A stretch of DNA of 64,000 bases from Escherichia coli 042 (GTDB lineage Bacteria > Pseudomonadota > Gammaproteobacteria > Enterobacterales > Enterobacteriaceae), in the NCBI RefSeq assembly GCF_000027125.1, contig NC_017626.1. One strand, 5' to 3'. The notes under the pieces are model-generated. The model had not been told where the DNA came from. It saw nothing but the letters and a program-made list of their open reading frames with translations, and made no database searches. A program made the position numbers and the translations under genes. Position 1 is the stretch's first letter. Each line of letters opens with the position of its first letter. Below, one piece after another: positions 7,765 to 8,641 of this stretch.

Positions 7765-7813
7765 ATGACGCTCCTGCGTAATGAATCAAAGATAATGCTG
7801 TATGATAAAAAAA

Positions 7814-7833
7814 TGCTGGATAGATATCCAGCG
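7814..7833. promoter_or_regulatory. LexA (SOS) box upstream of ruvAB
   Basis: tgCTGgatagatatcCAGcg: a CTG-N10-CAG palindrome about 50 bp upstream of the ruvA start. Confidence 0.85.
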
Positions 7834-8038
7834 AAGGATGAAGAAAACTTGCGAGGTGTCTCGATGAACTGAAAAATGGCACAGTATAATTTATTCTACA
7901 GGTTATATTGGAAGTAAATATTTTAATATTACATATTCAGTGAAGAAATGCGTAATAAAAATATACATTGCGCCTCCTGAAAAAATAAATTTTTTATGCT
8001 ATTACGTATATTTATATCTATTTCAATGGAATGACAAC

Positions 8039-8641
8039 ATGAATATTAATTACCCTGCTGAATATGAAATTGGTGATATCGTCTTTACATGTATAGGTGC
8101 TGCCTTATTTGGCCAAATATCAGCTGCATCAAATTGCTGGAGTAATCACGTCGGGATCATTATCGGTCATAACGGTGAAGACTTTCTGGTTGCAGAAAGC
8201 CGTGTTCCCCTCTCAACCATCACTACGCTATCCCGTTTTATTAAACGCTCTGCTAATCAACGCTATGCTATAAAGCGATTAGACGCCGGGCTAACAGAAC
8301 AACAAAAACAACGAATTGTTGAACAGGTTCCCTCTCGGCTACGAAAACTTTACCACACCGGTTTTAAATACGAATCTTCGCGCCAGTTCTGTTCAAAATT
8401 TGTCTTTGATATTTATAAAGAGGCACTATGTATTCCGGTGGGTGAAATAGAGACGTTTGGAGAACTGTTAAACAGCAATCCAAATGCAAAACTCACTTTC
8501 TGGAAATTCTGGTTCCTGGGTTCTATTCCGTGGGAGCGTAAAACCGTCACGCCAGCCAGTTTGTGGCATCATCCGCATTTGGTGTTGATTCATGCGGAGG
8601 GAGTGGAAACGCCTCAGCCGGAACTGACCGAGGCGGTATAA
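8039..8641 (+). CDS. yebB: uncharacterized protein YebB (DUF830-type)
   Basis: 200-aa product starting [16 protein letters not shown]; the ORF-track start at 7940 is an upstream extension; AT-rich gene. Confidence 0.85.

Follow-up and report, generated by a model that had tools for sequence, protein, structure and literature searches.

An old AT-rich insert carrying yebB in the ruvC-ruvA interval of Escherichia coli, and a probable lipid-directed role for its permuted papain-like product

The gene yebB is already known and annotated in E. coli, and as such is an ordinary feature of the chromosome. We argue here that it stands on an old insert of about 810 bp in the ruvC-ruvA gene row, and that its product would be a cytoplasmic enzyme of the permuted papain-like type with fatty-acyl chemistry. 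We put the probability of this explanation as a whole at about 0.78. The window, the whole stretch of DNA that was analysed, comprises 64,000 nucleotides of E. coli 042, and all positions given below are those of the window. The locus is laid out as follows.

7153..7764, minus strand: ruvA, the left flank of the islet and part of the ancestral gene row (open reading frame and RefSeq annotation).
7802..7830, minus strand: sigma-70 promoter of ruvAB, TGGATA-17-TATCAT, ancestral sequence kept beside the islet (consensus scan).
7815..7832: LexA (SOS) box palindrome GCTGGATAGATATCCAGC, followed by a T-run on the minus strand (CTG-N10-CAG match at 7816-7831; hairpin and T-run).
7833..8642: the whole inserted islet, about 810 bp, GC 0.399 (homology breakpoints against empty-site species).
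7835..8024: AT-rich filler, GC 0.274 (blastn).
7869..7884: second CTG-N10-CAG motif, CTGAAAAATGGCACAG (motif match inside the lineage-specific filler).
7903..7968, minus strand: yobI, a small hydrophobic protein of 21 aa (RefSeq 'stress response small protein YobI'; translation).
7940..8038, plus strand: spurious N-terminal extension of the mechanical open reading frame, from GTG 7940 (ORF list against the RefSeq and NCBIfam start).
7977..8005, plus strand: proposed sigma-70 promoter of yebB, CTGAAA-17-TATTAC (hexamers from the SELEX paper, placed by eye).
8039..8641, plus strand: yebB, 200 aa, permuted papain-like protein (NlpC/P60, Peptidase_C92; Pfam, NCBIfam, PDB 2if6, AF2/Foldseek).
8643..9164, minus strand: ruvC, the right flank of the islet (open reading frame and RefSeq annotation).

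The coding region of ruvA ends, on its start-codon side, at 7764. On the other side of the islet ruvC and yebB are convergent, and the yebB stop codon (8639-8641) lies 1 nt from that of ruvC, a junction that recurs in Salmonella and other genera.

The sequence-only reading had described yebB and its upstream region as AT-rich relative to ruvAB and ruvC, and the measurements bear this out. The GC and GC3 of yebB (0.438 and 0.395) are clearly below those of ruvA (0.534 and 0.576), ruvB (0.531 and 0.530) and ruvC (0.556 and 0.636); a composition indistinguishable from that of the neighbours, which had been named beforehand as speaking against acquisition, was thus not seen. Of all intergenic regions in the window that measure 200 bp or more, the 274-bp spacer at 7765-8038 has the lowest GC (0.303). 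When the 58 genes of the window that encode 80 aa or more were ranked, yebB had the lowest GC3 (z = -3.0) and the second-lowest GC (z = -2.7). Its codon adaptation index (CAI), 0.239, was third-lowest, and at z = -1.0 this deviation is weak; the departure in codon usage of yebB is strong in GC3 but slight in CAI. The whole 877-bp region at 7765-8641 has a GC of 0.396, and only 2.7% of same-size windows are equally AT-rich, the remainder of them being long non-coding spacers. At each of the 16 ruv-site loci measured, yebB had a lower GC3 than its flanks ruvA and ruvC, and in Providencia, Proteus and Budvicia the GC of yebB is close to that of the locus or host. The AT-rich composition of the E. 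coli locus would have a simple historical cause in an old insertion. One point against it is that amelioration to host GC is expected for a yebB that predates the split of E. coli and E. albertii, yet is not seen.

The insertion site was examined in a survey of the junction in 77 Enterobacteriaceae species, and RuvA was found to be 91-99% identical over 80 species loci. Universal presence of yebB at this site, named beforehand as an observation that would speak against acquisition, was not found: the junction is empty in 49 of the 77 species, holds an intact yebB in 12, yebB remnants in three (loci L025, L051 and L053) and other cargos in 11. Empty junctions have a ruvC-ruvA gap of 75-86 bp with a near-identical order of elements (ruvC stop, about 10 nt, LexA palindrome, T-run, -10, SD, GTG), and the block formed by the ruvAB -10 and SD is conserved in every empty-site species. 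Among these are Salmonella enterica subsp. diarizonae and most Citrobacter, Kluyvera, Enterobacter and Klebsiella. In the outgroup families, represented by Erwinia, Rahnella and Xenorhabdus, ruvC and ruvA are adjacent with no gene called between them. Salmonella enterica carries yebB at the ruv site, and the yebB orthologues of Providencia, Proteus and Budvicia lie in unrelated contexts, with a different neighbourhood in each. On the ruvA side, homology to empty-site species stops at 7832-7834, and on the other side it stops at the ruvC stop (8643); the LexA palindrome at 7815-7832 marks the ancestral boundary of the insertion. The filler at 7835-8024 is confined to E. coli and its closest sister species, and aligns only with the Escherichia sp. 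loci L006 and L015; blastn homology to it is absent in E. albertii, Citrobacter, Kluyvera, Superficieibacter and Pseudocitrobacter, and other genera have different genes in its place. Taken together, the shift in composition, the patchy occurrence of the gene beside empty sites that are intact in relatives and in three outgroup families, and its presence in unrelated contexts elsewhere are features of a horizontally acquired islet, and they support the earlier proposal that yebB was acquired.

The same proposal held the acquisition to be ancient, and the age of the gene agrees with this. The locus was matched in 5,425 of 5,426 E. coli genomes, essentially every one, and the dS of yebB keeps step with that of its flanks across the Escherichia species. 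With a dN/dS of 0.04-0.10, yebB is under purifying selection and, by this sequence measure, is a maintained functional gene. The YebB tree is mostly congruent with the flanks, and Enterobacteriaceae YebB proteins form one clade apart from those of Morganellaceae and Budvicia, with clear exceptions to the congruence. Evidence for the swapping of cassettes comes from about 29 E. coli genomes with a 3.9-kb variant, whose yebB has a dS of 1.38, versus 0.10-0.31 for the flanks, and groups with that of Pseudocitrobacter vendiensis; Pseudocitrobacter itself contains two unrelated yebB lineages.

These data also bear on the alternative that yebB was ancestral at the ruv site and was lost repeatedly, its AT-richness reflecting low expression and AT-biased mutation. 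Occupation of the very same junction, 1 nt from the ruvC stop, in several genera would fit such a history, as would the single Enterobacteriaceae clade and the agreement of dS with the flanks inside Escherichia, and the three remnants show that loss does happen. Repeated loss would, however, have had to leave one conserved sequence of 75-86 bp at 49 sites with no scar, and in the three outgroup families the site is empty as well. Moreover, sister taxa differ (S. enterica and S. diarizonae), Pseudocitrobacter holds two lineages of the gene, and other low-CAI genes of the window still hold GC3 at 0.45-0.53, so that we consider an ancestral yebB unlikely.

Besides yebB, the cassettes found at the junction comprise two uncharacterised membrane-protein families, a DUF4034-like protein, a membrane-anchored PBP-like protein, a pair of an MmyB-type regulator and an SDR, and NicO. 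A wider joint reading would make the ruvC-ruvA junction an Enterobacterales-wide hot spot that swaps small orphan cassettes by recombination in the ruv flanks, with the E. coli filler as the birthplace of yobI and with YebB as a cytoplasmic fatty-acyl hydrolase or transferase that would act on a lipid or lipoprotein. Taken as one package, this reading is a tentative one, and we would not expect all of it to hold.

The leader upstream of yebB had been read as a non-coding region into which the open reading frame extends. The extension is present and spurious: the mechanical frame from GTG 7940 encodes 233 aa, but RefSeq and the NCBIfam model both place the start of yebB at 8039, homology to other genera on the yebB side begins only at about 8025-8061 by blastn, and the extension at 7940-8038 runs antisense across yobI and shows no conservation beyond Escherichia. 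The true start of yebB is 8039. The leader, on the other hand, is not simply non-coding, since it holds yobI as well as the ruvAB promoter and LexA operator (7802-7832). For annotation, the gain is a yebB start at 8039 rather than 7940 and a leader made up of yobI and the SOS-controlled ruvAB promoter. The yobI gene is preceded by a strong AGGAGG Shine-Dalgarno sequence at 7973-7978. In Escherichia sp. MOD1 its start codon reads ATA, another Escherichia species has lost that codon by deletion, and conservation of the open reading frame fails even among these sister species. Transposon insertions in yobI are reported to be sparse (PMC5821084). We also considered yobI as the decayed N-terminal remnant of a membrane-protein gene of about 220 aa, famB, which takes the same position in other genera. 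This was unsupported: when 7765-8038 was searched by tblastn with the famA and famB proteins, no match went beyond 4-8 residues (E at least 0.04), and blastn against E. albertii left 7835-8024 without homology.

We take the palindrome at 7815-7832 to be the SOS box of ruvAB, which was reportedly described by Shinagawa in 1988 and by Benson in 1988. The box (7816-7831) overlaps the -35 element of ruvAB. Some 145 bp separate it from the proposed yebB promoter, and relative to yobI it is downstream. Because CTG-N10-CAG occurs 31 times in the 64 kb, the further match at 7869-7884 within the 274-bp spacer is insignificant, and it may be either a weak LexA site or a chance match. Promoter hexamers in the spacer between yobI and yebB come from genomic SELEX (PMC3946193). 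A scan of 7500-8900 against Rfam returned zero structured-RNA matches at E of at most 1. A candidate terminator of yebB evolved within ruvC, a hairpin at 8780-8803 followed by a T-run, was rejected: both elements are found whether or not a species carries yebB and are therefore a by-product of conserved ruvC codons.

A LexA box within the shared divergent region is one reason to consider an SOS-linked or conflict module here, in which yebB and/or yobI would be regulated by LexA or the two would form a toxin or defence pair. A network study predicted yebB computationally as a LexA target (PMC2689187), yobI is hydrophobic and resembles small membrane toxins, and the permuted NlpC/P60 protein Tox-Act1 is a T6SS toxin (PMC12994826). 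The box, however, belongs to the ancestral sequence of ruvAB; it precedes the proposed yebB promoter by some 145 bp and occurs with or without yebB. In Providencia, Proteus and Budvicia yebB occurs alone, and the yobI frame is not conserved in sister Escherichia species. Searches of defence and phage families point the same way. With PADLOC, YebB, YobI and the famA neighbour went unmatched, and the famB neighbour drew only two weak Csx1 matches below significance (E about 0.006); no PHROGs family was matched; we accordingly rejected the islet as a known defence or toxin system or phage protein family. A search for a conserved partner gene found that the neighbours of yebB vary between genera. 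On balance, we regard an SOS-linked or conflict module as very unlikely.

YebB is a circularly permuted NlpC/P60 papain-like enzyme of the YaeF/YiiX family, an assignment that we make with confidence. Pfam PF05708 (Peptidase_C92) matched with 158.8 bits against a gathering threshold of 27 (E = 1.6e-46, profile positions 3-165 of 166), and the NCBIfam YebB equivalog NF008547 with 405.1 bits against a cutoff of 227. The NCBIfam equivalog for YiiX scored 80.5 bits, below its cutoff of 216. In sequence, YebB matched PDB 2if6 (YiiX) with E = 6.5e-18. The AF2 model of YebB (pLDDT 94.8, pTM 0.90) was matched by Foldseek to 2if6 with E = 3.7e-17, TM 0.82/0.90 and an rmsd of 2.1 A, and to 3kw0 with E = 2e-6 and TM 0.60. 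In an alignment of 50 homologues that reaches down to 26% identity, H37, E53, Y105 and C118 are each kept in 49. The circular permutation is seen in the order of the catalytic residues, with His37 preceding Cys118; they align with the His and Cys128 of YiiX, the residue roles being those described in PMC3142127.

Reading the YebB sequence directly, we found no signal peptide and no lipobox, although some relatives with 40-50% identity do have one or the other. As the protein lacks an export signal, it probably acts in the cytoplasm, and its predicted place would be there or at the inner leaflet. YaeF and YiiX are exported, and YebB would be the sole cytoplasmic protein among these E. coli paralogues. 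Several properties of its relatives suggest what it may act on. A fatty acid lies beside Cys128 and Tyr115 in the YiiX crystal (PMC3142127), and these two residues align with Cys118 and Tyr105 of YebB; YiiX has a hydrophobic tunnel occupied by stearate. In the permuted branch the S1 pocket is narrow and hydrophobic and was judged unfit for peptides (PMC3142127), and the permuted relatives LRAT/HRASLS, LnsA and Tox-Act1 act on lipids (PMC7387801; PMC12994826). By analogy, the substrate of YebB is most likely of the lipid type, with an acyl-thioester formed on a fatty-acyl substrate. The literature on yebB is nearly empty, and of the 19 papers naming it none addresses its function. The function, which the sequence-only reading had left as unknown, can now be narrowed to that of a cytoplasmic permuted papain-like Cys-His enzyme whose substrate is probably of the lipid type. 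Together with its conserved catalytic residues, a cytoplasmic location yields a testable hypothesis of fatty-acyl thioester chemistry. It is very unlikely that YebB is a peptidoglycan endopeptidase or amidase like canonical NlpC/P60 proteins: it belongs to that superfamily with its Cys/His/Tyr catalytic set intact, but the absence of a signal peptide or lipobox, the S1 pocket unsuited to peptides and the fatty acid bound by YiiX speak against a cell-wall enzyme.

Hallmarks of a mobile element were sought at the islet and gave little. Flanking direct or inverted repeats were limited to short pairs of low identity, none of them convincing; neither an integrase nor a tRNA was found; and a search for phage carriage of yebB returned zero phage matches. 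The 13 'plasmid' matches are records of 0.25-4.9 Mb, all typed non-mobilizable, of which those from E. coli and Salmonella look like misfiled chromosomes and those from Burkholderia and Cupriavidus like secondary replicons. On these grounds, carriage of yebB on a phage or genuine plasmid was rejected. Since such hallmarks are absent, the mechanism of transfer is something that we infer.

The history that we propose for the old yebB insert runs as follows. In the ancestor of Escherichia, possibly of Escherichia and Salmonella enterica together, an AT-rich insert of about 810 bp (about 7833-8642) would have landed in the short gap that separates the ruvC stop from the LexA-controlled ruvAB promoter, splitting the co-oriented row aspS-nudB-yebC-ruvC-ruvA-ruvB. 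One module of the insert is yebB, common to other genera, transcribed away from ruvA and convergent with ruvC; the second is a filler that varies and reaches from yebB to the LexA box. In E. coli this filler has 190 bp at 27% GC and holds a young yobI together with the proposed promoters of yebB and yobI. The insert has no mobility genes. Homologous recombination in the highly conserved flanks, ruvA and ruvC, is the most likely way in which it passed between lineages and was exchanged for other cassettes. The position of ruvC outside the ruvAB operon of E. coli is a textbook oddity. It would find its explanation here, because the yebB insert parted ancestral genes that were adjacent and co-oriented, as they still are in most relatives.

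As for the enzyme, Cys118, activated by a His37 that Glu53 orients, would attack a carbonyl that Tyr105 holds. With its acyl chain in the hydrophobic S1 pocket of the family, the substrate would give an acyl-thioester, as judged from YiiX (PMC3142127). Resolution of this intermediate by water would amount to hydrolysis of the fatty-acyl amidase, thioesterase or phospholipase-A type; alternatively, an acceptor could take up the acyl group in a transfer reaction. The analysis itself demonstrates the composition, the insertion site, the phyletic pattern, the purifying selection, the fold and the catalytic residues, whereas the lipid nature of the substrate, the transfer route and the cellular role are inferred.

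Among known systems, the closest is yebB of E. coli K-12 (b1862; NF008547, 'YebB family permuted papain-like enzyme'), the same gene in the same position between yobI/ruvA and ruvC. The DNA of K-12 is 97% identical to the window over 7600-8800, which spans yebB, and dN between the two yebB alleles is 0.011; the start codon is ATG in the window allele and GTG in K-12 and the sister species. YiiX (PDB 2if6) has in common with YebB the fold and the permuted His-Glu-Tyr-Cys order, but its identity to YebB is just 26-28%, it is itself enzymatically uncharacterised, and unlike it YebB bears no export signal. The permuted papain-like core and Cys-His acyl-thioester chemistry are alike in Bacillus cereus BcPPNE (3kw0) and the eukaryotic LRAT/HRASLS (PLAAT) acyltransferase-phospholipases, a group with family-level lipid specificity (PMC3142127, PMC7387801). 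Their identity to YebB, however, is 17% or undetectable, their substrates are established where that of YebB is deduced from relatives, and LRAT-like proteins were not among the significant Foldseek matches of the YebB model. As a genomic feature, the yebB islet resembles the hot-spot islets of Enterobacteriaceae, which are gained through their flanks and carry no mobility genes, in its AT-richness, its patchy occurrence at a single conserved junction, the alternative cargos found there and the empty ancestral site. It differs from them in being tiny (one gene and filler), in having no tRNA, integrase or repeats, and in being fixed in the species rather than variable among strains.

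The genes of this part of the window run in the order znuACB-ruvBA-yobI-yebB-ruvC-yebC-nudB-aspS, and the AT-rich islet (7765-8641) lies between ruvA and ruvC among the following features.

6134-7144, minus strand: ruvB (ORF and annotation)
7153-7764, minus strand: ruvA (ORF and annotation)
7903-7968, minus strand: yobI (annotated 21-aa gene with an AGGAGG ribosome-binding site)
8039-8641, plus strand: yebB (RefSeq annotation and NCBIfam equivalog start)
8643-9164, minus strand: ruvC (ORF and annotation)

In K-12 yebB is already annotated and its family described; the gene lies in a small, old, fixed insert and is as such ordinary. 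Mildly new are only the exact points at which the insertion begins and ends, the way the ruvC-ruvA junction acts as a hot spot, and how young yobI looks. A 1.2-kb query around the islet matched 5,425 of 5,426 complete E. coli genomes, at least 80% of it being covered in 5,390, and the genes annotated beneath the matches are ruvA, yobI, yebB and ruvC. The top match is strain Ecol_316 (99.9%), and K-12 is 97.0% identical. The yebB start codon (8039-8041, compared with L002 3440-3442) is ATG in E. coli 042 and GTG in sister Escherichia species and in K-12. The convergent znuB/ruvB spacer (5983-6133) is GC-rich (0.61) and holds repeats resembling REP/BIME palindromic units (gtcggatgcggcgcgagcgccttatccgac ...).

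The sequence-only reading proposed that yebB was inserted into the ruv locus, and comparison of the ruvA-ruvC interval between genomes, the decisive test, supports this, as yebB is not universal at the site. A RuvA scan of one genome per GTDB species yielded 80 Enterobacteriaceae loci, 77 of them with both ruvA and ruvC. The two genes are co-oriented and separated by a gap of only 75-86 bp (the empty site) in 49/77; in two further loci (L043 and L084) an inserted ERIC-like repeat brings the gap to 208 bp. This repeat is a ~125-bp imperfect palindrome, ERIC/IRU-like by eye, located between the ruvAB -10 element and the ruvA Shine-Dalgarno sequence. yebB genes of at least 180 aa occupy the junction in 12/77 loci, with a patchy distribution: Escherichia spp., E. 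albertii, Pseudocitrobacter, one Citrobacter, two Kluyvera, two Superficieibacter and one "Enterobacter" sp. Remnants of yebB are present in 3/77 loci, and unrelated cargo in 11/77. The order aspS-nudB-yebC-ruvC-ruvA-ruvB is contiguous in the outgroups Erwinia, Rahnella and Xenorhabdus, confirming that the empty site is ancestral. Salmonella enterica subsp. enterica has the order ruvA, 224-aa membrane protein, yebB, ruvC, and the junction of subsp. diarizonae is empty. The yebB neighbourhoods of Providencia, Proteus and Budvicia are three different, mutually unrelated ones.

A single shared sequence marks the empty sites: ruvC stop, ~10 nt, GGCTGGATATCTATCCAGCC, T-run, TATGAT, ACGCAGGAGCG and GTG-ruvA; E. 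coli retains the stretch from the palindrome to ruvA whole. By blastn, homology breaks off at window 7832-7834 next to ruvA and, at the opposite end, at the ruvC stop, which gives an insert of ~7833-8642, roughly 810 bp, with a GC of 0.399.

Other cargo is found at the same place, and the ruvC-ruvA junction behaves as an insertion hot spot. Dickeya carries a NicO transporter gene there (L095 3523-5055). A ~225-aa polytopic membrane protein (famA) lies between yebB and the LexA box in Salmonella, E. albertii and Citrobacter FP75, with examples at L086 4100-4774, L028 5216-5902 and L018 4417-5112. A ~220-aa two-TM protein (famB), whose TM helices are separated by a Cys-rich domain and whose C-terminal tail is basic, occurs in Superficieibacter, Citrobacter FP75 and others, for example at L033 1619-2305, L038 5153-5848 and L066 5212-5874; in K. 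oxytoca it stands alone at the junction. Members of both families range from ~190 to 270 aa, each family is found with or without yebB, and neither has a Pfam match or a significant PADLOC match. Unrelated cargo was also noted in Kosakonia/Phytobacter junction loci (L048, L052, L055, L056, L060, L071, L076) and in L041, L063 and L066. The Kosakonia cargo is a GC-rich 1.9-kb pair encoding an MmyB-type HTH regulator and an NAD(P)-binding SDR, and Intestinirhabdus and P. vendiensis carry a DUF4034-like secreted protein.

Base composition bears out the contrast first noticed between yebB with its upstream region and the ruv flanks. The GC and GC3 of yebB are 0.438 and 0.395, compared with 0.534/0.576 for ruvA, 0.531/0.530 for ruvB, 0.556/0.636 for ruvC and 0.517/0.496 for yebC. 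In GC3, yebB ranks last of the 58 window genes of at least 80 aa (z = -3.0), and in GC second from the bottom (z = -2.7); its CAI of 0.239, computed with Sharp-Li E. coli weights, is the third lowest of the 58 but lies 1 SD under the mean, a weak deviation. The 274-bp spacer (7765-8038) has a GC of 0.303, the minimum among window intergenic regions of at least 200 bp. Only 2.7% of segments the size of the 877-bp islet (GC 0.396) are equally AT-rich, the others being long non-coding spacers (flhDC upstream, araF-ftnB, torY-cutC). At each of the 16 ruv-site loci measured, the GC3 of yebB falls short of the values for the ruvA and ruvC flanks, by between 0.02 and 0.35 and in the majority by >0.1. 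yebB GC is near locus GC in Providencia (0.375 vs 0.389), Proteus (0.364 vs 0.349) and Budvicia (0.493 vs 0.522). A gene from a lower-GC lineage would be expected to look like this across hosts, although the pattern does not pinpoint the donor.

An N-terminally extended ORF does exist, from GTG 7940 (233 aa), but the extension is spurious: RefSeq and the NCBIfam equivalog place the start at 8039, and other genera show no similarity until ~8025-8061. The leader is A/T-rich as described, but it is not non-coding, since it contains yobI on the opposite strand, the ruvAB promoter and the LexA palindrome (7815-7832). Genomic SELEX placed constitutive sigma-70 promoters of yobI and yebB within the 70-bp gap between them (PMC3946193), and the reported yebB hexamers map to window 7977-8005. 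yebB is also a predicted LexA target in a network study, on account of the box in the shared region (PMC2689187); the prediction is weak, because this box belongs to the ancestral ruvAB sequence and overlaps the -35 element of ruvAB. The palindrome, GGCTGGAT-ATCT-ATCCAGCC (7815-7840, minus strand), is followed by seven T's and also scores as an intrinsic terminator, and in species without yebB it lies ~10 nt past the ruvC stop (e.g. L007 5918-5945). A single element may therefore serve as both ruvC terminator and ruvAB operator. A terminator-like hairpin with a T-run at 8780-8813 (plus strand, yebB sense), 138 bp inside ruvC, was considered as a yebB-specific terminator and rejected; it occurs in species with and without yebB and is thus probably a by-product of ruvC codons.

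yobI sits inside a 190-bp filler (7835-8024, GC 0.274) that is alignable only with the closest sister species. Its ORF is intact in E. coli; in an alignment with two sister loci (A2, L006/L015), Escherichia sp. MOD1-EC7003 has ATA in place of the ATG, and another Escherichia species has a deletion of the start and SD region. On this evidence, yobI looks like a young, E. coli-specific ORF, and it is a candidate, possibly de novo, small-protein gene within AT-rich filler. Comparison with famA and famB gave no support for derivation from either. yobI has been scored "essential" by TraDIS only, owing to few insertions (PMC5821084), which could reflect its small size (a 66-bp AT-rich target) or nucleoid-protein occlusion.

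The proposed antiquity of the acquisition is likewise supported. The dS of yebB relative to the window tracks that of its flanks in K-12 (0.15 vs 0.04-0.22), Escherichia sp. (0.37-0.47 vs 0.12-0.49) and E. albertii (0.85 vs 0.33-0.66), and dN/dS is 0.04-0.10 in every comparison, indicating that yebB was already in place before the Escherichia species split and has been kept under purifying selection ever since. In the YebB tree, Enterobacteriaceae sequences stand apart from those of Morganellaceae and Budvicia. Its branching broadly agrees with the flank tree, with clear exceptions: Pseudocitrobacter vendiensis and P. faecalis have different yebB lineages on sister flanks. Divergent ruvA-ruvC interval alleles occur in ~29 E. 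coli genomes (identity bands 80-95%). In AST85, the one inspected, a 3.9-kb interval (L003 3321-7244) replaces the 0.88-kb one and adds genes for 188-aa and 349-aa hypothetical proteins and a 505-aa membrane-anchored PstS/PBP-like protein. Its 190-aa yebB has a dS of 1.38 to the window (flanks, 0.10-0.31) and groups with Pseudocitrobacter vendiensis, and its 3' part has the same sequence as the common allele. No convincing flanking repeats were found around the insert, and no yebB copy was found on phages or genuine plasmids. From these swaps and absences we infer that exchange took place through homologous recombination between conserved ruv flanks. Several yebB-bearing "plasmid" records in PLSDB (H13-H17) are 0.4-4.9 Mb E. 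coli sequences that look like chromosomes, or pieces of them, deposited as plasmids.

YebB matches Pfam PF05708 (Peptidase_C92, "permuted papain-like amidase, YaeF/YiiX"; 1.6e-46) and the NCBIfam YebB equivalog (405 bits, cutoff 227). HMMER, run exhaustively against 1.84 billion cluster representatives, returned 669 clusters at E <= 1e-3; relatives beyond its own cluster are at most ~51% identical, and some carry lipoprotein or signal sequences that others lack. No N-terminal hydrophobic signal is apparent in YebB itself, which should therefore act in the cytoplasm. By sequence, E. coli YiiX (PDB 2if6, 6.5e-18) is the one relative with a solved structure. The fold and the catalytic residues are established by this analysis: an AF2 model built from a 50-sequence alignment has pLDDT 94.8 and pTM 0.90, and His37, Glu53, Tyr105 and Cys118 each occur in 49 of 50 homologues. 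Foldseek gave only two significant hits, YiiX (TM 0.82/0.90, rmsd 2.1 A) and B. cereus BcPPNE 3kw0 (TM 0.60). The aligned counterparts of Tyr105 and Cys118 in YiiX are Tyr115 and Cys128, between which a fatty acid is bound in re-refined 2if6 (PMC3142127). Family chemistry combines Cys/His nucleophilic catalysis, a Tyr on the P1 carbonyl and a hydrophobic S1 acyl-chain pocket (PMC3142127). By analogy, Cys118 and His37 of YebB, the latter oriented by Glu53, would perform nucleophilic catalysis, Tyr105 would hold the P1 carbonyl, and an acyl chain would be seated in the hydrophobic S1 pocket, giving a fatty-acyl thioester to be hydrolysed or transferred. We put the probability of a fatty-acyl or lipid-type substrate at about one half. 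The thioester proposal follows from the lipid-acting permuted relatives, namely the characterised LRAT and HRASLS phospholipase/acyltransferases, the S. aureus lipoprotein N-acylation component LnsA and the T6SS lipid toxin Tox-Act1 (PMC7387801, PMC12994826).
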